DNA from: Escherichia coli
GTDB lineage: Bacteria > Pseudomonadota > Gammaproteobacteria > Enterobacterales > Enterobacteriaceae
Length of the DNA stretch: 64,000 bases
Assembly: GCF_041248615.1 (NCBI RefSeq)
Contig: NZ_CP158426.1
Direction: 5' to 3' (one strand)
The notes under the pieces were generated by a model. The model was not told where the DNA came from, searched no databases, and worked only from the letters and a program-made list of their open reading frames with translations. Shown here piece by piece: positions 48-27,528 of this stretch. The first letter of the stretch is position 1. The number at the start of each line of letters is the position of its first letter. A program made the position numbers and the translations under genes.

Positions 48-57
48 GCATCTTTCC

Positions 58-1146
58 TCACGGCAGGCGGTGGCGAGCTTGATAATAAGCCTGCCAGTGA
101 GCTTCTTTATGTGTGGCGACGCGCTGTTCGAAGTAACGGCGCAGACGCGCGCGATCTTCTTCGTTATCTTTAACGATGGTTCCGGCAATACAGTCCACCA
201 GGTCGGCAGGCTCCCCCGCGCGATTCGCTAAAAACCAGGCGCGGACGCCCACTGCGTGGGCCACGTTCACGGCTTCAGCGGTGGACATAATTGCCGTCAG
301 GGTATCCATTGACGTTTTCTTTTCGCCGTTGGCACGCAGATCGCGGAAGGTGCGGACCAGTAACTCCAGTACCGCGTCAGGCACTTTATGCGGAATACCG
401 CTATGGGCCAGCAAACGCGCCGAAGCACTGGCGACCAGTTCCAGCTCCTGGGCGAAATCCATAATCGGAAAGACGGTTTCAAAATCGAAGCGACGCTTTA
501 GCGCGGCACTCATCTCATTGACGCCGCGATCGCGGGTATTGGCAGTGGCAATAATATTAAAGCCTTCCCGCGCATAGAGCTGACTGGCTTCACCGGTGAG
601 TTCCGGCACCGTCATCACCCTGTCAGAAAGCATACCTAACAGACAGTCTTGTACTTCCAGCGGTGTACGTGTTATCTCTTCAAAACGGACGATTTTGCCG
701 TCGCGCATTCCCTGGTAAAGCGGGGCAGGGACCAGTGCTTCCGTTGACGGACCATGGTTGATAAGCAGGGCGTAGTTCCAGCCGTACTTGATTTGATCTT
801 CAGTAGTAGATGCGCCGCCCTGGATGGTTAACCCGGCATCGCCGCTAATAGCGGTTGCCAGTAATTCAGACAGGAGAGATTTTGCGGTGCCAGGTTCCCC
901 CACCAACATCAAACCGCGCCCGGTGGCAAGAGTGACTAACATACGTTCGACAGCGGAGGGACTAATCACCACTTTACGGCTAATATTTTGCGCTCTATCG
1001 CCAAGGATAAAAGCACGGGCCGCAGGCAAACTTAACTGCCAACCGGGCGGGCAAGGTGCGTTATCATTTTGTTTTAATTTTGCCAGTTCATCGGCGTATA
1101 ACACAGCAGCAGGCGGACGCTGCAGATGATTATTCTGCGGTGACAT
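58..1146 (-). CDS. yehL: AAA+ (MoxR-like) ATPase YehL; ORF track extends to 1212 but start at MSPQNNHL (1144-1146) fits the expected ~362 aa
   Basis: Walker A motif LVGEPGTAKS in translation; synteny with yehK/yehI. Start choice is inference. Confidence 0.8.
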   Translation of the reverse strand: MSPQNNHLQRPPAAVLYADELAKLKQNDNAPCPPGWQLSLPAARAFILGDRAQNISRKVVISPSAVERMLVTLATGRGLMLVGEPGTAKSLLSELLATAISGDAGLTIQGGASTTEDQIKYGWNYALLINHGPSTEALVPAPLYQGMRDGKIVRFEEITRTPLEVQDCLLGMLSDRVMTVPELTGEASQLYAREGFNIIATANTRDRGVNEMSAALKRRFDFETVFPIMDFAQELELVASASARLLAHSGIPHKVPDAVLELLVRTFRDLRANGEKKTSMDTLTAIMSTAEAVNVAHAVGVRAWFLANRAGEPADLVDCIAGTIVKDNEEDRARLRRYFEQRVATHKEAHWQAYYQARHRLP

Positions 1147-1254
1147 ATATTCATCCCTGAAATGTATTAATGAAATAAACGATATTTTACGCGCAATAAA
1201 TGTTTGGCGCATTAGTTGTTTGAGCGAAAAATATCTGGAAAGCAGATCACAGTA

Positions 1255-1292
1255 AATAAAAAAACCTGCTGGTGAGGCAGGTTCTTTTATTT
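1255..1292 (-). terminator. Hairpin (AACCTGC...GCAGGTT) flanked by A-run and T-run; candidate bidirectional rho-independent terminator between yehK and yehL
   Basis: Seen in sequence: aaaaaaacctgctggtgaggcaggttcttttattt. Confidence 0.5.
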
Positions 1293-1719
1293 ACTACAGT
1301 GACGCTAACTTGCTGATTGTGCAACATTTCGTACCAACGAATAAATTATAACCATATCCACACTCCATTGCAATTCAGTGAATGAGATTTATAATCCTGC
1401 CCGTTGGGAGGTTGTGCCGGATCGGACCAATTTTAAGTCCTGGCTGCTGGACGGGTGGTGCCGCAGGCGGTGCCCTGATCCGGAGAGCAACGTTTCGTAC
1501 CAACATACGTAAACCAGTATCGACAGGCAGTGTAAGGGTAAGGTGCTGGTGTTGCGCTCCTTAATAAGGAGAGCGGATGGACACGCTGACACAAAAGTTA
1601 ACCGTGCTCATTGCTGTACTGGAGCTATTAGTGGCTCTGTTACGGTTGATTGATTTGTTGAAGTAACGGGCAAATTGAAACGCATCTAAGGGGGAATACC
1701 GTTTCCCCCTTTAATAAAG

Positions 1720-2025
1720 CTATTTTTCTATTTGTTGGTTGAATATATTTTGTAGTTCGCGATTAAAAATTGCTATTACAGTTTCAGGTGATTCACCTCG
1801 TAATTTTCGCTCATCAATAAACTCATCTCTTATATAAATCAACGCATCATTTATTAGCGGGTCAGCATCATTAAATGTTGGACGTAGCCGGAATCGTTCC
1901 AGTCGATAGACGGAACCTGTAAATAATTCAGAGCGTTTATGGATCTCAAGCCTGAAGGAAAACGGCTCTTCAGGTACAGGGGCCTCATAATCGTAAATAG
2001 TGATCAGCTCTTTTTGCACGATCAT
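1720..2025 (-). CDS. yehK: Small conserved protein YehK
   Basis: 101-aa ORF in the expected position between yehI and yehL; identity by synteny and recollection. Confidence 0.7.
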   Translation of the reverse strand: MIVQKELITIYDYEAPVPEEPFSFRLEIHKRSELFTGSVYRLERFRLRPTFNDADPLINDALIYIRDEFIDERKLRGESPETVIAIFNRELQNIFNQQIEK

Positions 2026-2085
2026 CGCTTTTCCCGGTGGCAGGTCGTGTTAATAACGAGCAGTCGCATCACTGCCCGCTGTGTT

Positions 2086-5000
2086 TTAATGGAAAATGAC
2101 GTCGGGTGCGCTTAACGCCTCACTCAAATCAAACACATCAAGTTCGGCAAAAGTGACGGATTTATTCTCACGGTATACATGAAGAGAACGGAAGCTCATT
2201 AGCGCTTTGCTATCAACATTGTAGTGGTTAAAACCGGATGAAAACTTAAGGACCAGCCGGTACTCGCCCAAGTCATAGACAAATGCGTTCTCATAGCCTG
2301 ACTCCCAGCCTTTGTATCGCAATCCCATAAGTTGCCCAACGGTAGCAGATTTACCTTCCCAGCGATTCAAACTATTACTGGCTGACTCGTCAGGCGTGAG
2401 CAGCACCGTGCGGCGCGACAATTGGCGAAAAGGCGACATAATTTCGTAATCGGCAAAAAGCTGTGCAAATTCACTGCGCATTTCTGCTGTCATTTCTAAC
2501 GGGTGGGCAATGCCAATCAGAGCATCGGCAGGCAGGTCAATTGGCTCATCTTGCTCATTGCAGAACTCCCCCTCAGCGGCCACACGAAAGGCGTTGAGTA
2601 AACAACGCGGTTCATTTGCCGGATAAACACCCCATATCAATCGCTGAGTAACCAGGCGGGTAAAGGGATGATTAATAAACAGAGAATGAAAATCTGCCAG
2701 CGACCAGCGTCGGGTGGTGCGCAGGGCAGTTTCAAGACGCGGGAGCAGGTTTTTGCTCACCTGAGTAGCATCTTTTTTTAGCCCTTTTAGTCGGGCCAGT
2801 GCCTCGGGTGCTTTCAGTTGATCGTCATCGGCGCGCAACCGGGGAACGCTTTTCTGGCGAACGTTTTGCTGATCAAAGATAACCGGGTTGAGGTTTTCAT
2901 CGAAGCGAACGGTAAATTGCCGTGGACCAAAATCAAAAATCAACGCCTGCGGATCATCAAGACCCAGTGTTGGGACTAATCTGTCCGCTAACTGTTCCTG
3001 GCTTAGCCCGCGATTTTCTGCGACCACCTGAAGAAATTCCGCCGCGTTATCACGTAAGGGGCGGGATTTCGCCCGTTGCGATATATGATGCAGCTGCATC
3101 AGCGCCATATCATTATTCATCAGGGTAAGGATGTTCAGGCCACTGACAGCACGGGCAGATTTGCCTTCTTGTGGCCAGGCGAGGATCTGTGTCGTTAGAT
3201 CCCGTGTCGTGCTTTCGTCACCAAAGAGACTTAACGCCAGAAATGCCCAGTTGTCTTTTGCGGGGGCACCAGCTTGTTGCCACGCAGTGAAGAGATCCCA
3301 GGCAAAAGCTGCCAGCGTTTGTGGCTGGCAGAACGTTTTCAGTTGTTCCAGCCCGCTATAAAAACGTCCGCCTTGGGTAAAGCGCAGCATTTCGCCGATA
3401 ATTTCCAGAGCGTCATCGGTAACAGGCTGATTATTTGTGATAAGGCGCGGCCTGGACCGCATTTGCGGCTGCCAGAAATCAGGGGCTTTTGGAATGCGTG
3501 TCGGGTAAATCTCTATTGGACTCTGTTTAAGTAATTGCTCCAGGGCAGGCCATACATCTGTACGCTGCCAGCGGTTTGCCACGGTTTGCAGTAACTCGCC
3601 ATGTCCCTGTTCGTAAAGTAAACGCAGGGCAAGTAATGCAGCTTCGCTATTATCGCTGGATTTGGTGAAGACAAGAGGGATAAGTGCAGTAGCTGTATGT
3701 TCCGGCCAATGTAAAATCCACTGGCGAGCCAGATCACGCTGCGCCGCGAAACGTCGCCAGACGCGGGCAACGGGCAGGGCCAGTTCTGTTGCGCCAAAAT
3801 TTAAAATTAACGGAAATGTTTCTTTTGGACGATGTGAAAAAGCCAACAGCAGACCTGGTAGAGCATCCAATCCGAAGATACTGAGAAAATAGTCCTCACC
3901 CGCAGACAGATGCTTTTTCTCATTGATACGTAGCCAGAAAGTCAAAGCCATCTCACGCGGCAACTGCGCCAATAAATACAGGTTCCAGATACTCTTTTCC
4001 CGACGATAGCGTGAGTAGCTGTCATTTTCCCATATGTTAATGAACACTTCTACGTGACCGTTGCGAAGCGCCTGTTCTGCTAATTGAGCTTCCGGGGAGC
4101 TCCAGCCATTCATGATCTCTTCAACCCGCCCTGGGTAGTAATGCCACTGAACAATGAGTGAATTGCGTGCAGCATCCAGTTTTCCGGGGAGTATATAATT
4201 CAAAAACAGCCATACATCATCTCCAAAACCCAGCTCCTGTAATACAACTCGTCCACTTTTTTGTTCCATGCGTTCCGCAAGAGATTCCGTGCTGAAATAA
4301 CGGGCAGACTCAGTGGCGGCAAGCCTCTCTTGTTCGCCTGGTTGCCAGTAAACTTGCGGGGTTAATTCGAGCGGTGCCAAATCAAGACGTGGAGCTGTCA
4401 TTTTTTTCTTACTACGCCACGGTGGTGAAACGAGGATTTCAGGCAGATTGCTGTTATCGGTGCCATCAATAACCGGTTTGGGCGGTGCCGATAAATAACT
4501 ATTCAGCACTGCCCGGGCTTGAGTACTTAACCACGGCATCACTTCTGCTGCCAGTTGTGGCTGCGATGCCATCAGCGTTTGTAACAGCGTACGCCAGTAT
4601 TCATCACGTGCTTTTTGCTGTGCAGGCAGCTTTTTGTCTTCGATGATTGGATAACCAGGGCGCGTAGGTGGTTCTTTTAGCGCCAGCAGTTCTGCCAGTG
4701 CGGCAAGCGTCGCATGGGGGAAATTTTTACTGTATTTAGCTACACGTTGCAGGCTGGGTTTGTTTTTATCAGCAACTAACAGCAGGGTGCGGATGACCTG
4801 CGGATGGTTAATTTGTACCAGCAGACTGCCGCAATCTTCTTTATGGGCATACATTGCCAGGCGTGGAACGGCTGCCAGTCCTTGTTCGCGCAAAAGGGCA
4901 GCGCAGGCCGCGTAGCCGAAGTGGTTTTCATGCGACATGTAGCTGGCTTCCCGATCGCTAAATATATCCTGGCTCCAGTAGCGTTCGAGTTTTCTCACCG

Positions 5001-5718
5001 CTCTGGGGTCAATAGCAACAACTTTTAACCACTCCTTAGAATGAAAATGAGTCCACGGGCATTCAAGGCTTACCAACTCATTGGCGATTTCTGGTTTTTC
5101 CGGGAGGATCAGAGCAATAAAAGGGCGGCGAACTTTGGTTATTCCTGGCAGTGCGGCAATGAGTTTGTCGGCGCAACGCTGCCAGCTGCTTTCCTCTGCC
5201 AGAGAGAGATGCTTACGCAGTCGGAGATCGAATTCGTTATAGGTTTCTGATCGATAACCATAGCCATAATCCTCGTTCTGATACTGCAATGTCACTAGCA
5301 GAGGATCACTTTCATAACATCGTGTAATAAACTGGCGTGCAATCACCACCTCAGTCGCATATTCCAGTCCCTCTTGTTGGACGATTTCGTCGAGCAACTG
5401 TTGGCTATCATTTTGCGCGATACAGGCTAGCGCCGCCATTGTCCGGGCCGGAACTGAGGGTTTGTGTTCGCCAATCAAGTTGATGGCCTGCGTAATGGCC
5501 GACTGCCACTCCAGTGAAAAATTATCATAACGCCAGACAATGTTTTTTTTCTTCTCAGCTTTTTGTAGCAATTCATCACCCAGTGTCTGGATGAGGCTTT
5601 CAGTGATAACAGGCACCGGTTCGCCCGGCCAACTGCGATGGCTGAGCGGCGTTTTGCCTTTTTTATATTTCAGTTCCACTTGGGCGTTATCCGCCAGCCA
5701 CGGTAATTCCTTGTCCAT
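2086..5718 (-). CDS. yehI: Large DUF4132-type protein YehI (1210 aa), paralog of MolR
   Basis: 1210-aa ORF; shares motifs with the neighbouring 1249-aa ORF (e.g. FDLRLRKHLSLAEE vs FDVRLRKHLALAEE; DFGPRQFTV in both). Confidence 0.85.
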   Translation of the reverse strand: MDKELPWLADNAQVELKYKKGKTPLSHRSWPGEPVPVITESLIQTLGDELLQKAEKKKNIVWRYDNFSLEWQSAITQAINLIGEHKPSVPARTMAALACIAQNDSQQLLDEIVQQEGLEYATEVVIARQFITRCYESDPLLVTLQYQNEDYGYGYRSETYNEFDLRLRKHLSLAEESSWQRCADKLIAALPGITKVRRPFIALILPEKPEIANELVSLECPWTHFHSKEWLKVVAIDPRAVRKLERYWSQDIFSDREASYMSHENHFGYAACAALLREQGLAAVPRLAMYAHKEDCGSLLVQINHPQVIRTLLLVADKNKPSLQRVAKYSKNFPHATLAALAELLALKEPPTRPGYPIIEDKKLPAQQKARDEYWRTLLQTLMASQPQLAAEVMPWLSTQARAVLNSYLSAPPKPVIDGTDNSNLPEILVSPPWRSKKKMTAPRLDLAPLELTPQVYWQPGEQERLAATESARYFSTESLAERMEQKSGRVVLQELGFGDDVWLFLNYILPGKLDAARNSLIVQWHYYPGRVEEIMNGWSSPEAQLAEQALRNGHVEVFINIWENDSYSRYRREKSIWNLYLLAQLPREMALTFWLRINEKKHLSAGEDYFLSIFGLDALPGLLLAFSHRPKETFPLILNFGATELALPVARVWRRFAAQRDLARQWILHWPEHTATALIPLVFTKSSDNSEAALLALRLLYEQGHGELLQTVANRWQRTDVWPALEQLLKQSPIEIYPTRIPKAPDFWQPQMRSRPRLITNNQPVTDDALEIIGEMLRFTQGGRFYSGLEQLKTFCQPQTLAAFAWDLFTAWQQAGAPAKDNWAFLALSLFGDESTTRDLTTQILAWPQEGKSARAVSGLNILTLMNNDMALMQLHHISQRAKSRPLRDNAAEFLQVVAENRGLSQEQLADRLVPTLGLDDPQALIFDFGPRQFTVRFDENLNPVIFDQQNVRQKSVPRLRADDDQLKAPEALARLKGLKKDATQVSKNLLPRLETALRTTRRWSLADFHSLFINHPFTRLVTQRLIWGVYPANEPRCLLNAFRVAAEGEFCNEQDEPIDLPADALIGIAHPLEMTAEMRSEFAQLFADYEIMSPFRQLSRRTVLLTPDESASNSLNRWEGKSATVGQLMGLRYKGWESGYENAFVYDLGEYRLVLKFSSGFNHYNVDSKALMSFRSLHVYRENKSVTFAELDVFDLSEALSAPDVIFH

Positions 5719-11782: not shown

Positions 11783-12892
11783 ATGAACGAACAATCCCAG
11801 GCCAAATCACCAGAAGCCTTGCGCGCAATGGTCGCCGGGACACTGGCCAATTTTCAGCACCCAACCCTGAAGCATAACCTCACCACGCTGAAAGCGTTGC
11901 ACCATGTCGCCTGGATGGACGACACGTTGCATGTGGAACTGGTTATGCCATTCGTCTGGCATAGCGCGTTCGAAGAGTTAAAAGAGCAATGTAGCGCCGA
12001 ACTGCTGCGCATCACCGGGGCGAAAGCTATCGACTGGAAACTGTCGCACAATATCGCCACCTTAAAACGCGTGAAGAATCAGCCGGGAATTAACGGCGTG
12101 AAGAACATCATTGCGGTCAGCTCCGGTAAAGGCGGCGTGGGTAAATCTTCCACGGCGGTAAACCTGGCGTTGGCACTCGCGGCGGAAGGGGCGAAAGTCG
12201 GCATTCTGGACGCCGATATCTACGGCCCATCAATCCCCACCATGCTGGGCGCAGAAAATCAGCGTCCAACTTCGCCGGACGGTACCCATATGGCACCGAT
12301 TATGTCTCATGGACTGGCAACCAATTCAATTGGTTATCTGGTCACTGACGACAATGCGATGGTGTGGCGTGGTCCGATGGCGAGCAAGGCGTTAATGCAG
12401 ATGTTGCAGGAAACCTTGTGGCCGGATCTCGACTATCTGGTGCTTGATATGCCGCCAGGCACCGGTGACATTCAATTGACACTGGCACAAAACATTCCAG
12501 TAACTGGCGCGGTAGTGGTCACCACCCCGCAGGACATTGCGTTGATCGATGCGAAAAAAGGCATTGTGATGTTCGAGAAAGTCGAGGTTCCGGTGCTCGG
12601 TATTGTCGAGAACATGAGTGTGCATATTTGCAGTAACTGTGGTCACCATGAACCGATTTTCGGTACCGGTGGTGCTGAGAAACTGGCTGAAAAATACCAC
12701 ACACAGCTGCTGGGGCAGATGCCGTTACACATCTCCTTACGTGAGGATCTCGATAAAGGCACGCCAACGGTTATCAGCCGTCCGGAGAGCGAATTTACCG
12801 CTATCTACCGCCAGCTGGCTGACCGCGTTGCAGCTCAGCTCTACTGGCAGGGTGAAGTCATTCCAGGCGAGATTTCCTTCCGCGCGGTCTAA
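11783..12892 (+). CDS. apbC: Fe-S cluster carrier ATPase ApbC/Mrp
   Basis: Walker A GKGGVGKSS; start chosen at MNEQSQAK preceded by GGAG Shine-Dalgarno (ORF track begins 30 nt upstream); divergent from metG as in E. coli. Confidence 0.9.
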   Translation: MNEQSQAKSPEALRAMVAGTLANFQHPTLKHNLTTLKALHHVAWMDDTLHVELVMPFVWHSAFEELKEQCSAELLRITGAKAIDWKLSHNIATLKRVKNQPGINGVKNIIAVSSGKGGVGKSSTAVNLALALAAEGAKVGILDADIYGPSIPTMLGAENQRPTSPDGTHMAPIMSHGLATNSIGYLVTDDNAMVWRGPMASKALMQMLQETLWPDLDYLVLDMPPGTGDIQLTLAQNIPVTGAVVVTTPQDIALIDAKKGIVMFEKVEVPVLGIVENMSVHICSNCGHHEPIFGTGGAEKLAEKYHTQLLGQMPLHISLREDLDKGTPTVISRPESEFTAIYRQLADRVAAQLYWQGEVIPGEISFRAV

Positions 12893-12922
12893 CGCCTATT
12901 AACCATTCTGGTTATTCTTCAT

Positions 12923-12965
12923 ACACCGCAGAGATGTTACATTGATGCGGTGTATTTGTTTTTGC
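12923..12965 (+). terminator. Candidate rho-independent terminator after apbC
   Basis: ACACCGCA...TGCGGTGT stem followed by ATTTGTTTTTG. Confidence 0.5.
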
Positions 12966-13154
12966 CGCATTAATGAACACTTATTTAATACTGCGAATAT
13001 TCTGCGGACCTTCGTCCGAAACTCTACAAAGTCGATTGATCGTACAGGCAATGCTTCATTATCATCCTTCGTGGCTGTGTAGTGGATGTACAGCTATAGT
13101 TTGTTATGCACTCATTCTATCCAGGCATAACCTTTACTACAGGGATAACGTTCA

Positions 13155-13436
13155 ATGAATAAGTATTGGCTGTCAGGAATTATTTTTCTTGCCTATGGAT
13201 TGGCTTCTCCCGCATTCTCTTCAGAGACTGCCACATTAGCGATTAATGGCAGGATCAGTCCCCCAACATGCAGTATGGCTATGGTTAATGGTCAACCTCA
13301 ACAGCATTGTGGTCAGTTAACGTATGATGTTGATACCCGTCATCAGGTTTCTTCGCCAGTCAAAGGTGTAACGACAGAAGTGGTTGTTGCAGGTAGCGAT
13401 AGCAAACGTCGAATCGTGTTAAATCGCTACGATTAA
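13155..13436 (+). CDS. yehE: Small secreted protein YehE
   Basis: 93-aa ORF with signal-peptide-like N-terminus, immediately upstream of the yehDCBA fimbrial cluster. Confidence 0.75.
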   Translation: MNKYWLSGIIFLAYGLASPAFSSETATLAINGRISPPTCSMAMVNGQPQQHCGQLTYDVDTRHQVSSPVKGVTTEVVVAGSDSKRRIVLNRYD

Positions 13437-13730
13437 TTTGCCACCCTGGTTTTTTAATCGAATTTAGAAAGCTGAAATCATCCGTGTGAATGATTTCAGC
13501 TTTTTTATTGATATCAATAATACCATTTACAAAAATCTGCATTAATTAATAGATGTGATAAATATTTAATATGCTTAAGTATTTGTTGTATTTATATTGC
13601 AATAGTTAATTTGTTTTAAATCAATAAAACAATATGTTTACATTGCTGCAACTTTTTTGATGTGAGAAATTTGTTTCCAAGAGATACAGACTCTTAACAA
13701 CCAAAAATAAATTTTATTAAGGAACATATT

Positions 13731-14273
13731 ATGAAACGTTCAATTATTGCTGCCGCTGTCTTTTCTTCTTTTTTTATGAGCGCTGGGGTATTTGCCGCAG
13801 ACGTTGATACCGGAACATTAACCATTAAAGGGAATATTGCAGAATCTCCGTGTAAATTCGAAGCGGGTGGCGATTCAGTAAGTATTAATATGCCAACTGT
13901 ACCAACCACTGTCTTTGAAGGTAAAGCTAAATACTCGACCTATGATGATGCAGTCGGTGTAACCAGCAGCATGTTAAAAATTAGCTGTCCGAAAGAAGTT
14001 GCTGGTGTAAAACTCTCGTTGATTACCAACGATAAAATAACCGGAAACGATAAGGCGATAGCCAGTAGCAACGATACCGTGGGGTACTATCTCTATTTAG
14101 GTGATAACAGCGATGTCCTGGATGTTTCTGCACCTTTTAACATTGAGAGTTATAAGACAGCGGAAGGTCAATATGCTATTCCGTTTAAAGCAAAATACCT
14201 GAAGCTGACAGATAATTCAGTGCAATCAGGTGATGTGTTATCTTCTCTGGTTATGCGTGTGGCGCAGGATTAA
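13731..14273 (+). CDS. yehD: Chaperone-usher fimbrial major subunit
   Basis: 180-aa ORF with signal peptide (MKRSIIAAAVFSSFFMSAGVFA) and fimbrial-subunit-like composition; first gene of yehDCBA. Confidence 0.85.
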   Translation: MKRSIIAAAVFSSFFMSAGVFAADVDTGTLTIKGNIAESPCKFEAGGDSVSINMPTVPTTVFEGKAKYSTYDDAVGVTSSMLKISCPKEVAGVKLSLITNDKITGNDKAIASSNDTVGYYLYLGDNSDVLDVSAPFNIESYKTAEGQYAIPFKAKYLKLTDNSVQSGDVLSSLVMRVAQD

Positions 14274-14353
14274 TAAATAAAATTTCAAGTTTCTCCAGGT
14301 AATAAACATGGCCGCTATCCCCATGGCGGCCTTTTAATTTAAGAGGCATTAAG

Positions 14354-15028
14354 ATGAAAGGATTATTTGCTTTACTCATTTCTTCTATGGTCCTTCCTGC
14401 ACATGCCGGTATTGTTATCTACGGGACGCGCATTATTTACCCGGCAGAAAATAAAGAAGTGATGGTGCAGTTGATGAATCAGGGAAACCGTTCTTCGCTG
14501 CTGCAGGCGTGGATTGATGATGGCGATACGTCGTTACCACCAGAAAAAATTCAGGTTCCTTTCATGTTAACGCCACCAGTGGCAAAAATAGGGGCAAATT
14601 CCGGGCAGCAAGTAAAAATCAAAATTATGCCGAATAAACTGCCCACTAATAAAGAGAGCATTTTTTATCTGAATGTTCTGGATATTCCACCAAATAGTCC
14701 AGAGCAAGAGGGCAAGAATGCACTGAAATTTGCAATGCAAAACAGAATCAAATTGTTTTACCGGCCTGCGGGTATTGCACCGGTAAATAAAGCGACATTT
14801 AAAAAGTTACTGGTAAATCGCAGTGGCAATGGATTGGTGATAAAAAATGACTCAGCAAATTGGGTGACGATTTCGGATGTCAAAGCTAATAATGTCAAAG
14901 TCAATTATGAAACTATTATGATTGCCCCCTTAGAAAGTCAGAGTATTAATGTCAAAAGTAATAATGCGAATAACTGGCATCTGACCATTATCGATGACCA
15001 TGGCAACTATATTAGTGACAAAATTTAA
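14354..15028 (+). CDS. yehC: Periplasmic fimbrial chaperone (PapD-like)
   Basis: Signal peptide plus 224-aa ORF positioned between subunit and usher genes. Confidence 0.85.
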   Translation: MKGLFALLISSMVLPAHAGIVIYGTRIIYPAENKEVMVQLMNQGNRSSLLQAWIDDGDTSLPPEKIQVPFMLTPPVAKIGANSGQQVKIKIMPNKLPTNKESIFYLNVLDIPPNSPEQEGKNALKFAMQNRIKLFYRPAGIAPVNKATFKKLLVNRSGNGLVIKNDSANWVTISDVKANNVKVNYETIMIAPLESQSINVKSNNANNWHLTIIDDHGNYISDKI

Positions 15029-15043
15029 TTGCAGGAGCTGCCT

Positions 15044-17524
15044 ATGTTGAGAATGACCCCACTTGCATCAGCAATCGTAGCGTTATTGCTCGGCATTGAA
15101 GCTTATGCAGCTGAAGAAACCTTTGATACCCATTTTATGATAGGTGGAATGAAAGACCAGCAGGTTGCAAATATTCGTCTTGATGATAATCAACCCTTGC
15201 CGGGGCAGTATGACATCGATATTTATGTCAATAAGCAATGGCGCGGGAAATATGAGATTATTGTTAAAGAAAACCCGCAAGAAACATGTTTATCAAGGGA
15301 AATTATCAAGCGGTTAGGCATTAATACCGATAACTTTTCCAGCGGTAAGCAATGTTTAACATTTAAGCAACTTATTCAGGGCGGGAGCTATACCTGGGAT
15401 ATCGGAGTTTTTCGTCTCGATTTCAGTGTCCCGCAAGCCTGGGTGGAAGAACTGGAAAGTGGCTATGTACCACCTGAAAACTGGGAGCGGGGTATTAATG
15501 CGTTTTATACCTCTTATTATATGAGTCAGTATTACAGCGATTATAAAGCGTCCGGTAATAGCAAGAGTACATATGTACGTTTTAACAGCGGGTTAAACTT
15601 ACTGGGGTGGCAACTGCATTCTGATGCCAGTTTCAGTAAAACAAATAACAATCCAGGGGTGTGGAAAAGCAATACCCTGTATCTGGAACGTGGATTTGCC
15701 CAACTTCTCGGCACGCTTCGCGTGGGTGATATGTACACATCAAGCGATATTTTTGATTCTGTTCGCTTCAGCGGTGTGCGGTTGTTTCGTGATATGCAGA
15801 TGTTGCCTAACTCGAAACAGAATTTTACTCCACGGGTGCAGGGGATTGCTCAGAGTAACGCGCTGGTAACTATTGAACAGAACGGCTTTGTGGTTTATCA
15901 GAAAGAGGTTCCTCCTGGCCCGTTTGCGATTACAGATTTGCAGTTGGCCGGTGGTGGAGCAGATCTTGATGTCAGCGTGAAAGAGGCGGACGGTTCGGTA
16001 ACCACCTATCTGGTGCCTTATGCAGCGGTGCCGAATATGCTGCAACCTGGCGTGTCGAAATATGATTTTGCGGCGGGTCGTAGCCATATTGAAGGGGCGA
16101 GCAAACAAAGTGATTTTGTCCAGGCGGGTTATCAGTATGGTTTTAATAACTTATTGACGCTGTATGGCGGATCGATGGTCGCGAATAATTATTACGCGTT
16201 CACTTTGGGGACTAGCTGGAATACACGCATTGGTGCCATTTCCGTCGATGCCACGAAGTCGCATAGTAAACAAGACAACGGCGATGTGTTTGACGGGCAA
16301 AGTTATCAAATTGCCTACAACAAATTTGTGAGCCAAACGTCGACGCGTTTTGGTCTGGCGGCCTGGCGTTATTCGTCGCGTGATTACCGGACATTTAACG
16401 ATCACGTTTGGGCAAACAATAAAGATAATTATCGCCGTGATGAAAACGATATCTATGACATTGCCGATTATTACCAGAACGATTTTGGCCGTAAAAATAG
16501 CTTTTCTGCCAATATGAGCCAGTCATTGCCAGAAGGCTGGGGTTCTGTGTCCTTAAGTACGTTATGGCGAGATTACTGGGGGCGTAGCGGCAGCAGTAAG
16601 GATTATCAGTTGAGTTATTCCAACAACCTGCGACGGATAAGCTATACCCTCGCGGCAAGCCAGGCTTATGACGAGAATCATCATGAAGAGAAACGTTTTA
16701 ATATTTTTATATCGATTCCCTTTGATTGGGGTGATGACGTTACGACGCCTCGTCGGCAAATATATATGTCTAACTCAACGACGTTTGATGATCAGGGTTT
16801 TGCCTCAAATAATACGGGATTATCGGGAACCGTTGGAAACCGGGATCAATTTAACTATGGGGTCAACCTGAGTCATCAGCATCAGGGAAATGAAACAACA
16901 GCTGGAGCGAATTTAACCTGGAACGCGCCGGTGGCAACGGTGAATGGCAGTTATAGTCAGTCGAGTACTTATCGACAGGCTGGAGCCAGTGTTTCAGGGG
17001 GCATTGTCGCCTGGTCGGGTGGCGTTAATCTGGCGAACCGTCTTTCCGAAACGTTTGCAGTGATGAATGCGCCAGGAATTAAAGATGCTTATGTCAATGG
17101 GCAAAAATATCGCACAACAAACCGTAATGGAGTGGTGGTATACGACGGAATGACACCTTATCGGGAAAATCACCTGATGCTGGATGTGTCGCAAAGCGAT
17201 AGCGAAGCAGAATTGCGCGGTAACCGGAAAATTGCCGCACCTTATCGCGGCGCGGTTGTACTGGTTAATTTTGATACCGATCAGCGCAAGCCCTGGTTTA
17301 TAAAAGCGTTAAGAACGGATGGGCAACCATTAACGTTTGGTTATGAAGTCAATGATATCCATGGTCATAATATTGGCGTTGTCGGCCAGGGAAGCCAGTT
17401 ATTTATTCGCACCAATGAAGTTCCGCCATCGGTTAATGTAGCAATTGATAAGCAACAAGGACTTTCATGCACAATCACCTTCGGTAAAGAGATTGATGAA
17501 AGTAGAAATTATATTTGCCAGTAA
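15044..17524 (+). CDS. yehB: Outer-membrane fimbrial usher
   Basis: About 826-aa ORF; start taken at MLRMTPL preceded by GCAGGAG SD (ORF track starts 15 nt earlier). Confidence 0.85.
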   Translation: MLRMTPLASAIVALLLGIEAYAAEETFDTHFMIGGMKDQQVANIRLDDNQPLPGQYDIDIYVNKQWRGKYEIIVKENPQETCLSREIIKRLGINTDNFSSGKQCLTFKQLIQGGSYTWDIGVFRLDFSVPQAWVEELESGYVPPENWERGINAFYTSYYMSQYYSDYKASGNSKSTYVRFNSGLNLLGWQLHSDASFSKTNNNPGVWKSNTLYLERGFAQLLGTLRVGDMYTSSDIFDSVRFSGVRLFRDMQMLPNSKQNFTPRVQGIAQSNALVTIEQNGFVVYQKEVPPGPFAITDLQLAGGGADLDVSVKEADGSVTTYLVPYAAVPNMLQPGVSKYDFAAGRSHIEGASKQSDFVQAGYQYGFNNLLTLYGGSMVANNYYAFTLGTSWNTRIGAISVDATKSHSKQDNGDVFDGQSYQIAYNKFVSQTSTRFGLAAWRYSSRDYRTFNDHVWANNKDNYRRDENDIYDIADYYQNDFGRKNSFSANMSQSLPEGWGSVSLSTLWRDYWGRSGSSKDYQLSYSNNLRRISYTLAASQAYDENHHEEKRFNIFISIPFDWGDDVTTPRRQIYMSNSTTFDDQGFASNNTGLSGTVGNRDQFNYGVNLSHQHQGNETTAGANLTWNAPVATVNGSYSQSSTYRQAGASVSGGIVAWSGGVNLANRLSETFAVMNAPGIKDAYVNGQKYRTTNRNGVVVYDGMTPYRENHLMLDVSQSDSEAELRGNRKIAAPYRGAVVLVNFDTDQRKPWFIKALRTDGQPLTFGYEVNDIHGHNIGVVGQGSQLFIRTNEVPPSVNVAIDKQQGLSCTITFGKEIDESRNYICQ

Positions 17525-20654: not shown

Positions 20655-21986
20655 ATGCACCTAATGTACAAAAAGAGCGTAAACATGAGGTACAAAACTC
20701 TTCCATACACGTTTCAAAGAAACGGTAATTACTATCTACAGATTCGGCTTTCGAATGGTCGGATGTATAAAAAATCACTTCTCACTGACAGCTATCGTGA
20801 AGTCTCTGCTTTGATGATTGGTGTTGCTCCGTACATTCCTTTTGTTAAATCATTAGCCATCACAATCCCGATGTTTGATGCCTTTGTTTCAAACCTGATT
20901 ATGTCAAAACTTAGGGCTGTAAAAGTTCCGCTGCTATCACATCAGTCGGTAATTACCCCTGCTACATTCGAGGAACCAGCGACACAAGCCGAACCGCAAA
21001 ACATGCTAACTCTTTCTGATGCGTGGGCTATGTATAAAGCGGAAAAGGGTAAAACATGGACAAAGTCGATCTCAAGGGCGAATGAGCGTTACATGGAAGT
21101 CTTGATGGTTGTCTTGGGAGAGACAACTGACGTAGTTGCGATTTCTAAGCAGGACATCAAGCAGGTGATGGAAGTTGTTGAGAATTTGCCTAAGCGTGTT
21201 GTCCAACCGTATCGCTCAATGAACATCCAGCAACTGATTGAATGTGATGATGTATCACCGAATGAGTTAGTAGGAGTGGAAGCCATTCATAAGCATCTCA
21301 AAATCTACAAATCGCTTTTCAAGACTTTTCTAACAGAAAACAAAGATATTTTGATTAAATCCCCAACTGATGGGGTAGTAGCAGCACCATCTAAAGCAAG
21401 GTTTGGAGCATACAGTTCGGCGGAGATGAAGAAGTTTGTAGAGTGGGCACTTAAGCAGCCAGATGGCTGGCAGAAGTGGATAACATTGTTGTTGGCATAC
21501 ACAGGAGCCAGAAGGGGAGAAATTGCCAAACTGGAAAAATCACAAATAAAATATGATGAGGATAGCCATCGGTATTATTTCCTGATTGCAGAAGGAGGGC
21601 AGGGGAAAACCGAAAATGCTACCCGACAAGTAGTGATACACCCTAAGTTGATCGAATGGGGTTTCATGGAATACGTTGATCGCCAGTGGAAAGAACGGAT
21701 TTTTTCAGAAGTGGCTGGTACAAACATGACGAAGATCGGTAAAGAATTTGCTGATGTGCGTGACCAGCTTGACATTCCGTACTTAGACGATTTTGGACAG
21801 CGGAGGCTTTTGCATAGCATTCGTCATTCTGTTTGCTCTACTGCGATGGCTGGATGGGTAAAGAACATCTTGCATCTGCAACAAACAGTAGGCCATGAGA
21901 AAAGTGGAGGGATCACTAAACGCTACTTACATACGTTCCCACTATCATCAATTTGTTATGTTATTGATGGGATTAGTTGGGTCTGA
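20655..21986 (+). CDS. Tyrosine-type site-specific integrase (island integrase); start may be at MRYKTLPY (20685)
   Basis: C-terminal catalytic signature: AYTGARRGE (box I Arg), HSIRHSV (H-x-x-R), ITKRYLH (Tyr nucleophile). Sits directly next to the left repeat. Confidence 0.85.
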   Translation: MHLMYKKSVNMRYKTLPYTFQRNGNYYLQIRLSNGRMYKKSLLTDSYREVSALMIGVAPYIPFVKSLAITIPMFDAFVSNLIMSKLRAVKVPLLSHQSVITPATFEEPATQAEPQNMLTLSDAWAMYKAEKGKTWTKSISRANERYMEVLMVVLGETTDVVAISKQDIKQVMEVVENLPKRVVQPYRSMNIQQLIECDDVSPNELVGVEAIHKHLKIYKSLFKTFLTENKDILIKSPTDGVVAAPSKARFGAYSSAEMKKFVEWALKQPDGWQKWITLLLAYTGARRGEIAKLEKSQIKYDEDSHRYYFLIAEGGQGKTENATRQVVIHPKLIEWGFMEYVDRQWKERIFSEVAGTNMTKIGKEFADVRDQLDIPYLDDFGQRRLLHSIRHSVCSTAMAGWVKNILHLQQTVGHEKSGGITKRYLHTFPLSSICYVIDGISWV

Positions 21987-22203
21987 AACTGCTAAGAATG
22001 ATAGGAAAAGCTACTTAATGATCCTTAGTTTTGGATGAAATTGAAGATTACAAAGATCTTGAGCGAATAAGAGCGTTTTTTAATCAAAAAAGCCATAAAA
22101 ACTTTTCTTGACTGTATATTAACACAGTGCTTCTACTATGTAGAAGAAATCGACATGAAAAATTTGATATGGTAAATTTTATCCATGATAACAAAAAGGT
22201 ATT

Positions 22204-23106
22204 GTGGATATGTTACTACCAATACGAGTTCATAAACGATTTCTAACTTTATTTAAGACTTTGCAAATTGACGATTGCCCACCGCAATCAACTTTAAATA
22301 TTCATGTACTTAATATCGAAAGCAATGAATTTATATACTGTAAATTAGTTGAAGAATTACGTGACATAATAATTACTTATGTACATTCGAATAGAAGGCT
22401 TGAGGAGTTTAAGGAAAGTTATCCTTCGTATAGCCCTAAACCTTTTTTCGAAGCAATACAAAAATTTCGCAATTATACGTCAAACGAAGGTGAGTTAGGT
22501 GAACTGCTTTTATACGCTTTTCTTGAAACAGGACTAAATGCTCCGAAATTACTTTCCAAAATGCAATTGAAAACAGATTCTAATGATTACATTAAGGGTT
22601 CTGATGGTGTACATCTGTTAGAATTAGATGATGGTTATCAATTAATATTTGGAGAATCAAAGCTCTATGCCGATCTTTTAGAAGGTGCTCGAGAAGCGTT
22701 TGATTCTATTTTAGATTTTAAAAGTAATGGAATGGCATTTGAAAGAGGGCTGATAGATACACACGTTATAAATGAAATGGTTTCAGAAGAAGGTTATGAG
22801 AAAATAAAATCAATTCTTCTTCCTTCTTCTGGCGATGATGGGCCAGATCTTGATTTATCCTTTGGTATATTTCTTGGTTTTGAATTGAAAATAGATAGCT
22901 CACAGTTATCATTGAAAAACAAAGAGTTTAGAGATTGGGTTAATGAGTCCGTGAAACAACATGCTACTCGCGTGGTCAGTACGATACGAAGGAAAATTAT
23001 TAATCATAAATTATATGGTCACGAATTCCACATATATATAGTTCCTTTTACCGATATTGATGTTACACGAAAAAAATTAATTCATGAAATGCTAACAATT
23101 AAGTGA
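22204..23106 (+). CDS. PD-(D/E)xK nuclease-like protein, HamA (DUF1837)-like candidate; start GTG 22204 or ATG 22210
   Basis: Motifs in the order expected for the restriction-endonuclease fold: acidic helix EGELGELLLYAFLE, then SDGVHLLELDDG, then LIFGESKLY (E-x-K). AT-rich; stop overlaps the start of the next gene. Confidence 0.55.
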   Translation: MDMLLPIRVHKRFLTLFKTLQIDDCPPQSTLNIHVLNIESNEFIYCKLVEELRDIIITYVHSNRRLEEFKESYPSYSPKPFFEAIQKFRNYTSNEGELGELLLYAFLETGLNAPKLLSKMQLKTDSNDYIKGSDGVHLLELDDGYQLIFGESKLYADLLEGAREAFDSILDFKSNGMAFERGLIDTHVINEMVSEEGYEKIKSILLPSSGDDGPDLDLSFGIFLGFELKIDSSQLSLKNKEFRDWVNESVKQHATRVVSTIRRKIINHKLYGHEFHIYIVPFTDIDVTRKKLIHEMLTIK

Positions 23107-25691
23107 ACACTATGAATGAATTAAATTCAAGTAAAAACATTCATTTGGCAGCTCGTCTTGCAGATGATGCTTTTGAAAGTGCTTATTTTAAAGAAATCAA
23201 TAAGTTTATAAGTGGTTTATACAATTACAGTTTATTTAACTGCGATTCAGATGTTAGTCTCTCCGAGAGTGATAACAATAAAATAGCACACGCTTTGCGT
23301 TTTGCAGATATATTTTCACATTCTTCAAAAGAAAATCATAGATCATGTGCATTTGAAATTATAAGTAGAATAGCCTTATTAAAAAAACATGATCCTTATT
23401 TTAAATTTATAGGTACTGCTGTTATTAATCGGCTTGGGGTTTATGCAGCAGAAAAACTCATATCAAAAGGGGTAAAATTACCCTTAGATAGAGAAGTTGA
23501 TTCTATTATTAAAAAATCAGTTCAGAAAACAGATGAAGATGGAGTATATTTCACTGATAAACAACATGAGTTATACAAACTTTTAAAAAGTAGCAAAACA
23601 ATTAGTTTTGCTGGTCCCACTTCGATGGGAAAGTCATTTGTTATTAATGCATACATTAAGGAAATAACTCTTAAAAAAGAGCTTAAAAATATAGCTTTAA
23701 TTGTTCCTACACGGGCTTTAATAAGCCAAAATGCACTTAAGTTAAAAATTGATATTGCATTGTATAAGAATGAAAGCCCTTATAAAGTTGTTACGACATC
23801 CTACATTATTAATGGTGATGAAAGTAAAAATAAAGGCTATATTTTTATTCTCACCCCAGAAAGGCTGGTTAGTCTCATAAGCACTATTCCTGGACTAATG
23901 ATTGATTATGTTTTTGTAGATGAAGCTCAAAAGTTAACAACAAAAAATGATTCGAGGAGTCTTGTTACTTATTCAGCTATAGAGCAAACAATTAGTAAAA
24001 ATCCTGAGGCAAGATTATTCTTCTCTTCACCTAATTTATCTAATCCTGAAATATTTAATATTTTGTTTGATAGAAAAGACGCTTCGGTATATAGAAATAC
24101 AGAAGGTGCAACTACTCAGAATATGTATTTTATTGATCTTTTAAATAGCAGCTTTAGCTATGTTAATACCGAGAAAAGGACGCTTGAAAAAATAGATGAG
24201 ATCTCTAATACTTACACGAATACAAATGATGTTATCTATAAATTAAATAATGGTAAAAGTAAAATAATTTATTGTGGGGGGATAGAAAGCACGCTTGAGA
24301 GAACACGTAGCTTTATCAATTATCTCAAAATTAATAAGAAAAAAAGAAAGCATTTAAATTTAGAAATATCTTCTGAGATAAGAAACTTTGTTCATGATAA
24401 CTATGAACTTGCAGAAGCCATCAACTATGGTGTTGCTTTCCACTTTGGAAACTTGCCTCAATCGATTCGAGATTTAATTGAGCATCATTTCAAAATAGGA
24501 AATATTGACTATCTATTCTGTACATCAACCCTACTTGAGGGAGTCAATTTACCTGCAAGATCCGTATTTATTCTTACGCATAAAAAAGGCCCCAGTCCAT
24601 TAGAGTCGGTTGATTTTTGGAATCTGGCTGGGAGAGCTGGGCGATTATCTATGGAATTGTCAGGGGATATTTTTTGTATTAGGGATGATAATAAGCTTTG
24701 GAATAAAAAAGCTGTTGATAATATCCTTCTGTCTGACAAAAATAACATTTCATTAAAGCCAAGCTTCTATATTGAAGACGAAAAAAGATTGAACGATTTA
24801 CACCATATAATTACGACTGGTAAAACAGGGAATATTAAAAATGCTGAGTTCCTTAGAACTTTAGGAGATATGATAAGAATAGACACTCTGAGGGATTCTA
24901 AAGAACTTCCTCTTATTAGTTATTTCCAAAGCAGTGGAAAATCAGAAATTTTGTTAAGTGCAGAAAAAAGCACTGAAAATATTACCATGCCAATGAATAT
25001 CCTTTTGGCAAATAGTCATATTGCGATTGATTCGCAGTATCATGCTTTTAAAAAAATAAAAAGCCTTACAGTTAAGGAACTGAAATTATCATGGCAGCCT
25101 ACATACGAAGAAATTAAAGAAAAATTGAATTTGATATTCGATATTTACCAAGTTGAAAAGTTTGCAACAGGTAGAGAACGTCTTTATTTAAATTCAATTC
25201 CATATTATGCAGTATTACTGTTTCAATGGATTCGTGGAAATAGTCTACAGGAAATTATCTCGGGGGCAATTGCTTATAGAAAGAACAAAAGTATATATAT
25301 TAAAAATACACCTGTTCTTTTTGACAGCGAAAACCCAGCTCATTTAACTGCATTAGTTAATGAAACTATAAAAGACATTGAGTTGCGTGTAGGTTACCAG
25401 TTACAAAATTATTTTTCACATTACTGTCAGCTTCTGAATTATGTGTTACAAGGAAATCCAGGGGCAAACTGGTCTCAGTTCATTGAGTTTGGCTCTAATG
25501 AGCCAATAGTATGGCACCTACAAATGATGGGCTTTTCAAGGGATAGTGCAGTTTTTCTCAAGAAGAATTTTTCAAAACATCTTAAACTTGATAATGAAAT
25601 GAATAAACTCATCATAATGGATAAGGAACTGATCAAGCGTTCTTTCAAAAAAGATGGACTACATTACTTAGAAATCCAATCGTTATTATAA
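23103..25691 (+). CDS. Superfamily-2 helicase (DEAQ box), HamB-like candidate
   Basis: Walker A/motif I FAGPTSMGKSFV, motif II VFVDEAQKL, motif VI-like NLAGRAGRL; about 170-aa N-terminal extension before the helicase core; GTGA start/stop overlap with the upstream gene. Confidence 0.6.
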   Translation: MNTMNELNSSKNIHLAARLADDAFESAYFKEINKFISGLYNYSLFNCDSDVSLSESDNNKIAHALRFADIFSHSSKENHRSCAFEIISRIALLKKHDPYFKFIGTAVINRLGVYAAEKLISKGVKLPLDREVDSIIKKSVQKTDEDGVYFTDKQHELYKLLKSSKTISFAGPTSMGKSFVINAYIKEITLKKELKNIALIVPTRALISQNALKLKIDIALYKNESPYKVVTTSYIINGDESKNKGYIFILTPERLVSLISTIPGLMIDYVFVDEAQKLTTKNDSRSLVTYSAIEQTISKNPEARLFFSSPNLSNPEIFNILFDRKDASVYRNTEGATTQNMYFIDLLNSSFSYVNTEKRTLEKIDEISNTYTNTNDVIYKLNNGKSKIIYCGGIESTLERTRSFINYLKINKKKRKHLNLEISSEIRNFVHDNYELAEAINYGVAFHFGNLPQSIRDLIEHHFKIGNIDYLFCTSTLLEGVNLPARSVFILTHKKGPSPLESVDFWNLAGRAGRLSMELSGDIFCIRDDNKLWNKKAVDNILLSDKNNISLKPSFYIEDEKRLNDLHHIITTGKTGNIKNAEFLRTLGDMIRIDTLRDSKELPLISYFQSSGKSEILLSAEKSTENITMPMNILLANSHIAIDSQYHAFKKIKSLTVKELKLSWQPTYEEIKEKLNLIFDIYQVEKFATGRERLYLNSIPYYAVLLFQWIRGNSLQEIISGAIAYRKNKSIYIKNTPVLFDSENPAHLTALVNETIKDIELRVGYQLQNYFSHYCQLLNYVLQGNPGANWSQFIEFGSNEPIVWHLQMMGFSRDSAVFLKKNFSKHLKLDNEMNKLIIMDKELIKRSFKKDGLHYLEIQSLL

Positions 25692-25697
25692 AACTGC

Positions 25698-25728
25698 CGA
25701 ATCAGAGTCTTTTATTGATTCTGATTCG
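25698..25728 (+). terminator. Hairpin immediately after the helicase gene (weak terminator candidate)
   Basis: CGAATCAGA-(13 nt)-TCTGATTCG; no strong T-tract, so confidence is low. Confidence 0.3.
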
Positions 25729-25999
25729 CACTTATATAGTTAAATCAAAAGGAGCATTAAAATTTTTCAGTAGCGATTTAGTATGCTAAATCGCTGCATA
25801 ACGAATCTGCTTCTAAATCTTGATTAAGTGTTTCGAACTGCCTTGATTGTTTATTGCTACACTTTATAATTAATCGCAACACACAAAACAATACAATGTA
25901 GGCAGTTGCACAGAATTAATTACAGGCACATTATGGATATCGAGAGGATTCGAACAGTTTTAAACTGCAAGCCCTTTGACTTTATCCCCTCCTACTATA

Positions 26000-26575
26000 T
26001 CAGCGTTTGATGCCGCTAATACTGGCAAGCATTTCTTTCTTCACACGAAAAACTGTAGCCCTGCCGCAATCACATAACTTTGCTATCTCGTCTGGTGTAT
26101 TCTTCCCGGCCTGTAACATATCGATAATCTTGTTATGTAGCTCTTTGTTCTTTTGCTTGCCCTTGTACTTCTTAGCCTCTTTAGCAAGAGCAATCCCCTC
26201 ATTGCGACGAGATGCGATCATACCCCGCTCAAATTCTGCAGCGGCTCCCATCATGGTTAGGATAAGGCGTGATTGTGGGGAATTATCAAAACTCATAGAG
26301 TTTGCAAGGAATTGAACAGTGATTCCACGAGCCACGAGGTTATCAATCATTTCCAGCAAATCGCGGGTATTACGTGCAAGGCGATCAATCGAGTGAGTAA
26401 CGAGCGTGTCACCTTCGCGGAGGTGTGAAAGCAGGTTCAACAATTCAGGTCTTTCGCTGGTGGACTTACCTGATTCTTTCTCTGCCACAATTTTGTCACA
26501 AACAGGTTCCAGCACTGCCAACTGACGCTCAAGATTTTGATCCTTTGTTGAGACTCTCGCGTAACCAAAAATCAT
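26000..26575 (-). CDS. Serine recombinase (resolvase/invertase family)
   Basis: N-terminus MIFGYARVSTKDQNLERQ (catalytic Ser in YARVST context), C-terminal HTH-like tail; 191 aa. Confidence 0.85.
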   Translation of the reverse strand: MIFGYARVSTKDQNLERQLAVLEPVCDKIVAEKESGKSTSERPELLNLLSHLREGDTLVTHSIDRLARNTRDLLEMIDNLVARGITVQFLANSMSFDNSPQSRLILTMMGAAAEFERGMIASRRNEGIALAKEAKKYKGKQKNKELHNKIIDMLQAGKNTPDEIAKLCDCGRATVFRVKKEMLASISGIKR

Positions 26576-26600
26576 TTTCCTGCCCTCACTTACGTGAAAA

Positions 26601-26662
26601 GTATCATTTGAATTTACTTAATGATACAGTATCATTTAAATGCATTCAACATCTAAATGATA
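26601..26662. promoter_or_regulatory. Cluster of three dyad-symmetric elements upstream of the serine recombinase gene (res-like site)
   Basis: GTATCATT-11 nt-AATGATAC; TGATAC-A-GTATCA; ATCATTTAAATG...CATCTAAATGAT. Position immediately 5' of the resolvase start is typical of res sites. Confidence 0.45.
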
Positions 26663-27081
26663 CTAAACGAGACGAGAAAAGCGAGTATCGTTAGGGAGTA
26701 CCCAAAAGAGATTTTTGATCGTGCGTTTTTTAGTCAATGTAGGGTTAGTGAAAAGTTCAGTACCGAGATCTGAGTTCACGGCATTTTGTCGACGGGGTTG
26801 AACCTGATTAGGCGAACGAGATTTTAAATCAGGCGGAATAAAACAAGTTGTACTTTTATCTGAGTAAAAGATCCCTTTAACTTTTTAGTCAGAAATCGTG
26901 ATACTAGGGGTTTGGTTATTTTGTGTCCTTAAGGCCAGTACTTTTAGCGAGGACGAAAAAACGGCCTACATGAGAACGCTTACAGTAACTTAAGTATATT
27001 ATCCAAAAAGTCACTTAACTTAAATCAATTTGGATGCAAAATCGCCACACTTTGCAAGTGAACACATACCGGGCAACAAGC

Positions 27082-27109
27082 AAATAAAAAAGGCCACTTT
27101 CGCGACCTT
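27082..27109 (-). terminator. Rho-independent terminator after the 119-aa gene
   Basis: Minus-strand RNA: AAGGUCGC-GAAA-GUGGCCUU (GNRA tetraloop) followed by UUUUUAUUUG. Confidence 0.65.
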
Positions 27110-27125
27110 GTACCAGTACAAACAC

Positions 27126-27485: not shown

Positions 27486-27528
27486 TTTAATTCCTTATTA
27501 AAGAACAGTACATTATATTTCAATGGAC

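Follow-up and report, generated by a model that had tools for sequence, protein, structure and literature searches.

The AT-rich yehE-yehD intergenic region of Escherichia coli, control region of the core Yeh fimbrial operon: composition, conservation and relation to H-NS and ArcA

The analyzed stretch of chromosomal DNA (64,000 nucleotides of Escherichia coli, contig NZ_CP158426.1 of assembly GCF_041248615.1; referred to as the window) contains the genes metG, apbC (mrp), yehE, yehD, yehC, yehB, yehA, rcnB and rcnA in this order. The 294 bp under study (13437-13730) are exactly the gap between yehE (stop codon at 13436) and yehD (ATG at 13731). A 1.2-kb query around this gap had a match in 5413 of the 5426 complete E. 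coli genomes. In the 100% identical record NZ_CP062824 the matched stretch is annotated as yehE (YehE family, DUF2574) and yehD (fimbrial protein), and PF10836 was found on the Citrobacter orthologue of yehE. Yeh has been documented as a core-associated chaperone-usher type of the gamma4 group that is common to Salmonella (Stc) and Citrobacter (PMC3559732). The core Yeh fimbrial operon of E. coli (chaperone-usher type, gamma4) has its control region in this intergenic interval, which is ordinary and already known. No plus-strand open reading frame of at least 20 aa was found in the gap; the minus-strand frames of 20-71 aa, which overlap yehE, yehD or the terminator, were regarded as spurious. 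An Rfam scan of positions 12800-14400 gave chance-level matches only (E ≥ 0.35).

The operon is not intact in all relatives. In one E. coli genome (NZ_CM151393.1) yehD is broken by an IS1 element, and many YehD variants of Shigella flexneri comprise 174 aa, i.e. 6 aa less than E. coli YehD; both observations fit an erosion of the operon in some lineages. In a locus labelled Shigella flexneri 1235-66 (GCA_000268065.1, positions 1-5543), yehD falls among the versions from Citrobacter, with 66% identity to the query; yehE was not called, and the gene for the chaperone is in two pieces. On these grounds the operon seems to be in decay, and the organism label is doubtful.

The gap was compared in an alignment of the window with K-12 and six other Escherichia loci from a scan of reference genomes, to which loci of Citrobacter and Superficieibacter with shared metG-apbC-yehE-yehD synteny were added. 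The Salmonella stc orthologue was not recovered by the homologue searches, and the out-of-genus comparison was made with Citrobacter and Superficieibacter in its place. According to the cross-taxon comparison, the gap divides into three parts: a putative terminator, a distal spacer and a promoter-proximal block (see Table 1). The Shine-Dalgarno sequence of yehD is invariant across all aligned taxa.

Table 1. Features of the yehE-yehD intergenic region and its flanks (positions refer to the window; strand left empty where none was assigned).
Feature	Position	Strand	Basis and remarks
yehE, DUF2574, 93 aa (upstream flank)	13155-13436	+	Open reading frame list; RefSeq annotation of 100% identical record
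yehE-yehD intergenic region, 24.5% GC	13437-13730		Composition; 96% identity to K-12
Putative intrinsic (Rho-independent) terminator of yehE	13470-13507	+	RNA fold; RNAalifold covariation
Distal spacer with fast sequence turnover	13508-13583		Alignment; GC across taxa
Conserved promoter-proximal block	13584-13730	+	Alignment; taken to hold yehD promoter, operators and 5' UTR
Perfect 22-bp palindrome TTGTTTTA-AATCAA-TAAAACAA	13611-13632		Read from sequence
ArcA~P site of four direct repeats spaced 11 bp apart	13612-13654	-	Published K-12 site mapped by sequence
Inverted repeat AAGAG-N7-CTCTT	13679-13695		36-52 bp upstream of ATG
Shine-Dalgarno AAGGAA of yehD	13719-13724	+	Sequence; ends 6 nt 5' of ATG
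yehD, major fimbrial subunit, first gene of yehDCBA	13731-14273	+	Open reading frame list; annotation; PF00419

The first-pass annotation of this DNA had described the roughly 300 bp in front of yehD as strongly AT-rich, and this description is borne out by the composition: the gap has 24.5% GC compared with 47.9% in the entire window, 44% in yehE and 41% in yehD, and so low a GC content is reached by only 0.07% of the 294-bp windows that the 64 kb contain. The window-wide minimum for this length (23.1%) starts at position 13450, the core of the gap (13540-13640) has 15.8% GC, and the string quoted by that annotation is located at about 13542-13636. An AT content well above the neighborhood over at least 100 bp, as looked for in an H-NS target, is present. 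The AT-rich DNA coincides with the exact yehE-yehD gap, of which the first 70 bp (33.8% GC) correspond to the putative terminator hairpin of yehE rather than to promoter DNA. The orthologous gaps are of similar composition (24-29% GC in the six other Escherichia loci, 26-33% in those of Citrobacter and Superficieibacter), and yehD-yehC downstream has 39-42% GC. A further low-GC block of the window lies at 21500-33500 (294-bp minima of 25-30% GC). In matching genomes it is annotated with a tyrosine integrase, an IS3 transposase, DEAD/DEAH helicases and a DUF1837/HamA protein; it looks like a Hachiman-like defence island and is covered to at least 80% in just 8 of the 5426 complete E. coli genomes.

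The hairpin in the first quarter of the gap consists of the stem AGCTGAAATCAT/ATGATTTCAGCT (13470-13481 / 13490-13501; 12 perfect base pairs, extendable to 16), an 8-nt loop and a T6 run (13501-13506). The fold of positions 13437-13515 on the yehE sense strand has a predicted energy of −23.7 kcal/mol (z = −5.4). In the RNAalifold analysis of eight Escherichia sequences 18 pairs were obtained, four of them with compensatory double changes, and the loop varied freely; the Citrobacter loci have different stems and a T-run in the same position. A stable stem-loop, a U-run, a position after a stop codon and a conserved structure are thus all present, with the T6 tail 34 nt after the stop. The hairpin, which was missed by a simple consensus terminator scan, is read as the probable intrinsic terminator of yehE, supported by the compensatory changes. 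As hairpin and T-run would end the transcription of yehE, the genes yehDCBA would need a promoter of their own; because the first quarter of the gap is taken up by this terminator with its covariation, yehE and yehDCBA likely represent separate transcription units. Two comparable structures were seen nearby. Directly 3' of the apbC stop codon, positions 12925-12965 contain a T-rich run preceded by the inverted repeat ACACCGC...GCGGTGT, together probably the terminator of apbC. Between yehD (major subunit) and yehC (chaperone), the GC-rich hairpin GGCCGCTATCCCCATGGCGGCC is followed by TTTTAATTT (14310-14331); this terminator-like structure could, by analogy to other chaperone-usher operons, reduce the expression of the downstream assembly genes.

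The remaining two parts of the gap differ strongly in their conservation. In the distal spacer 72% of the alignment columns are variable across Escherichia, compared with 27% in the proximal block (Fisher p = 5e-11). The pairwise identity of the spacer (0.56-0.71) comes near that of the codon third positions of yehD and yehE (0.69-0.73); its GC content nevertheless stays at 18-30% in every taxon examined, from Escherichia to Citrobacter and Superficieibacter. This turnover of sequence under a constant AT-rich composition is one modest addition to the known picture. The proximal block has a pairwise identity of 0.85-0.96 and 21-25% GC, and some 80 bp at its core (13592-13672) can be recognized in Citrobacter and in part in Superficieibacter. 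The idea that the block is conserved beyond the measure of a normal promoter gap was rejected: in the same genomes the apbC-yehE gap has a similar pairwise identity of 0.865, with 32% variable columns. Because of this resemblance the proximal block has the appearance of an ordinary promoter region under constraint; what is unusual in the gap, judged from the alignment, is the fast-evolving distal spacer.

Data on the binding of H-NS are available for the orthologous region of K-12. As compiled in Table 1 of PMC3661553, this region is bound in the studies of Kahramanoglou et al. 2011 and Oshima et al. 2006; for Grainger et al. 2006 the compilations (PMC3661553, PMC5797941) do not list it, and Table 2 of PMC5797941 marks yehDCBA as H-NS-associated ('K, O'). 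The comparison with H-NS ChIP data that the first-pass annotation had proposed accordingly yields a K-12 gap that is bound in two of three studies, as compiled. In PMC3661553 the orthologue of the gap is further entered within the “promoter island” 2190229_357 and an H-NS-bound region, and PMC5797941, citing Korea et al. 2010, describes the laboratory expression of yeh as poor and the operon as H-NS-repressed. The genes yehEDCBA are, according to a preprint (bioRxiv 10.1101/2024.06.20.599902), part of an extended protein occupancy domain that is static. The proposed binding by nucleoid-associated silencers is thus supported by published evidence on a region of 96% identity (ChIP, promoter island, occupancy domain, repression). 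Since loss of the occupancy domain alone did not induce yehDCBA (bioRxiv 10.1101/2024.06.20.599902), silencing is not the whole story.

The designation of the operon as cryptic likewise holds in part. In K-12 the operon is poorly expressed in the laboratory, but “cryptic” is to be understood as relative: yeh promoter fusions are expressed in O157:H7, more at 28 °C, as stated in PMC7098969 with reference to Low et al. 2006. Overproduction of SlyA increased yehDCBA 3.6-fold (PMC5797941), and overproduction of BolA raised yehD and yehC. A plasmid-borne yehD-gfp fusion did not belong to those with strong expression and showed no robust response to SlyA.

The sequence of the gap was scored for the high-affinity H-NS motif tCGATAAATT (Lang et al. 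2007, PMC2094087). In the gap there was no match of at least 9/10 positions, the best being 8/10 at one site. Matches of at least 7/10 amounted to four times the window average, and their number (12) was not significantly above that in shuffled sequences (8.4 ± 2.8, p = 0.11). Without a match of at least 9/10 and an excess over shuffles, no nucleation site is assignable. A high-affinity nucleation motif is not obligatory for H-NS binding. The reading of the region as silenced AT-rich DNA is incomplete in four respects: phasing or curvature provides no basis for it (see below), a strong motif is missing, a terminator and an ArcA operator share the same interval, and the term “cryptic” is relative.

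The ArcA site published for K-12 (U00096.2 2190321-2190363, AAGTTGCCGCAATGTAAACACATTGTTTTATTGATTTAAAACA; information content of the direct repeats (DR) 1.4/7.5/6.1/3.7 bits; PMC3798270 supplement) could be mapped to the proximal block, 77-119 bp upstream of the yehD ATG. Compared with K-12 it contains two substitutions, both outside the hexamer cores of DR2 (ATGTAAA, 13637-13643) and DR3 (TTGTTTT, 13626-13632; both minus strand). As in ArcA~P operators, at least two TGTTA-like direct repeats follow each other at a centre-to-centre distance of 11 bp. The DR2 and DR3 cores are nearly invariant in Escherichia, with a single substitution in DR2 of E. albertii, and their 11-bp spacing is kept in Citrobacter and Superficieibacter; this conservation across genera is independent phylogenetic support for the site. 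In Park et al. 2013 (PMC3798270) yehDCBA is recorded as directly repressed by ArcA (with arcA mutated, expression rises 5.4-fold, p = 3e-5), with a ChIP-seq peak in one replicate only and with the entry “no TSS”; YehD is also listed among the ArcA targets in PMC6134199. In the locus of Enterobacteriaceae bacterium UBA5654 / Superficieibacter (positions 2246-3000) the gap is divergent, since the DUF2574 (yehE-like) homologue upstream of the yehD homologue is encoded on the other strand; this gap retains the DR2/DR3 core and the motif TTTAAATCAATAAAACA at a similar distance from the ATG.

Two symmetric motifs of the proximal block are left unexplained by H-NS or ArcA; both are conserved to Citrobacter while the neighboring spacer turns over. 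The 22-bp palindrome overlaps DR3 and DR4 of the ArcA site and is kept in both Escherichia and Citrobacter, and Superficieibacter has a single change in an arm; its symmetry is not accounted for by a protein that binds direct repeats. The inverted repeat AAGAG-N7-CTCTT is invariant in Escherichia, and Citrobacter keeps its arms with a different loop; it may be either an operator or a hairpin of the 5' UTR. It is conceivable, though we propose it only tentatively, that palindrome and inverted repeat are the operator of a dimeric activator or anti-silencer, or an element of the 5' UTR, which sets the inducing condition of Yeh. The conservation of the ArcA operator and the two symmetric motifs across genera is another modest addition to the known picture.

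Taken together, the gap is most probably to be understood as an AT-rich region with a terminator, a spacer and a conserved, ArcA-bearing promoter block, in which H-NS silences a weak promoter and ArcA~P adds repression. Composition, absence of phasing, terminator with covariation, conservation pattern and ArcA site sequence are results obtained on the present window, while binding and repression by H-NS and ArcA are taken from the K-12 literature. We infer that this control holds in the present strain as in K-12 and that it proceeds by filament formation and occlusion. H-NS, probably together with StpA or Hha, would recognize the narrow minor groove of the AT-rich DNA and not a phased bend; it would coat the gap and the AT-rich downstream operon as a filament that is part of the extended protein occupancy domain, and under laboratory conditions the filament would leave the weak yehD promoter almost silent. 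Under anaerobiosis, phosphorylated ArcA would add a specific repression. Relief would need counter-silencing (overproduction of SlyA or BolA gives modest increases), a lower temperature or a further activator.

A different reading takes the AT-richness as a passive relic of horizontal origin and AT-biased mutation that has no regulatory effect, the operon being controlled wholly by specific factors, ArcA for example, that act on the conserved block. Indeed, AT-biased mutation without selection could account for the composition of the fast-evolving spacer, which evolves about as fast as synonymous sites, and the reading agrees with an H-NS motif that is not enriched beyond composition, with an operon left uninduced by the loss of the occupancy domain and with the specific operators in the conserved block. 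We nevertheless regard it as unlikely, as the sources cited above report both binding and repression by H-NS for the K-12 region, a GC content of 18-30% is kept in every lineage despite the turnover of sequence, and the conserved block itself has just 21-25% GC.

The promoter of yehDCBA is inconspicuous. A sigma-70 consensus scan of 1.5 kb gave 4 sites compared with 5.1 ± 2.5 in shuffled sequences; a convincing sigma-70 promoter was rejected, as the scan reached 9/12 at most, at chance frequency. By eye weak candidates can be pointed out, e.g. TTGCTG-17-GAAATT with an upstream TG, none of which is named here as the promoter. The K-12 orthologue is one of the 78 published promoter islands (2190229_357, yehD/yehE; PMC3661553) and could be poorly productive for another reason: many overlapping promoter-like sites would trap RNA polymerase unproductively, and this, not the coating by H-NS, would be the main cause of the low output. 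Promoter islands bind RNA polymerase while productive transcription is suppressed, and that of yehD/yehE overlaps predicted genomic islands (PMC3661553). The simple sigma-70 scan gave no excess of sites (the islands are defined, after Shavkunov/Ozoline, by a very high density of transcription start points predicted with PlatProm over at least 300 bp), and in PMC3661553 itself H-NS is held largely responsible for silencing the islands, for which reason the island is not a separate mechanism; as the main cause of the low output, polymerase trapping appears slightly less probable still than the passive origin of the AT-richness.

The first-pass annotation had, in addition, called the A/T tracts of the region phased, a claim that the data contradict. 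The gap contains 20 AnTm tracts of at least 4 nt, the number expected from dinucleotide-preserving shuffles (20.2 ± 2.2), and the distances between their centres vary irregularly from 4 to 36 bp. The AA/TT periodogram power at 10-11.5 bp was below the shuffle mean (0.30 versus 0.69, p = 0.92), and among all periods of 5-20 bp none was significant in the gap. The predicted curvature is ordinary: in the Bolshoy-Trifonov wedge-model path, used as a secondary check, the end-to-end/contour ratio of the gap was 0.95-0.98 compared with a window average of 0.96, i.e. without an extra bend. Many classic H-NS targets are curved, and the 20 short tracts would be the material for the view, suggested by the heading of that annotation, that helically phased A-tracts bend the upstream region and that the bend recruits H-NS or wraps RNA polymerase. 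With the 10-11.5-bp periodicity absent, a tract number as in shuffles, a wedge-model ratio not below the window mean and no sequence conservation in the tract-rich distal part, this view is very improbable; the relevant property of the gap is its AT content and not helical phasing.

Fimbrial operons often phase-vary. The chance is nonetheless negligible that the gap acts as a switch, be it of the Pap type (Dam/Lrp methylation) or an invertible promoter element of the fimS type: a Pap-type switch would have two GATC sites about 100 bp apart within Lrp sites and none occurs between 13257 and 15961, the 9-bp perfect inverted repeat (13458-13466 / 13853-13861), which is the sole flanking one, has a left arm that differs in K-12 (TTGCATTTA) and a right arm inside the yehD coding sequence, the 12-nt direct repeat at 107-bp spacing (13552 / 13659) has a distal copy that is not conserved outside E. 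coli, and neither a recombinase gene nor a papI/papB-like gene was found between apbC and rcnB. A repeat search of the gap region gave short two-copy matches only, none of them conserved. The GATC-free 2.7 kb (13257-15961) extend from the end of yehE through the gap, yehD and yehC into the start of yehB and form the longest such stretch among the matches listed for the window, in which sites average one per about 270 bp.

Like the fimS and pap switches, the yeh locus has about 300 bp of AT-rich regulatory DNA immediately in front of the gene for the major subunit; it differs from them by the lack of conserved flanking inverted repeats, of a recombinase gene and of GATC sites. Compared with the multi-repeat operators of ArcA~P (Park et al.), the yeh site is the same published site, with 11-bp repeats in front of a repressed operon; its repeats are weak (1.4/7.5/6.1/3.7 bits). 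The yeh gap also resembles the cryptic chaperone-usher promoters of yadN, elfA/ycb, sfmA, ybgD and yfcV: like yehD/yehE they are AT-rich, H-NS-bound promoter islands, and their operons share with yeh a low laboratory expression and a response to SlyA overproduction. In the compilations yadN and elfA are scored as H-NS-bound in three of three studies and yehD/yehE in two of three. The yeh gap is set apart from these operons by the yehE terminator and the ArcA operator that it contains and by the absence of a local regulator gene.

The closest counterpart is the gap of K-12 MG1655 (NC_000913.3 2192223-2192514), which has the same flanking genes and an identity of 96% over 361 compared columns. 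About 24 substitutions separate the two, and almost all of them fall within the loop of the terminator or the distal spacer; the T-run at 13450-13455 is 2 bp longer in the window, and one stem pair of the terminator has changed in a compensatory manner (U-A here, C-G in K-12). K-12 has in common with the window the terminator, the ArcA repeats, the conserved block and the ribosome-binding site. The gap corresponds to a textbook type of AT-rich, H-NS-bound promoter of a core, poorly expressed operon and has already been catalogued as such in K-12.
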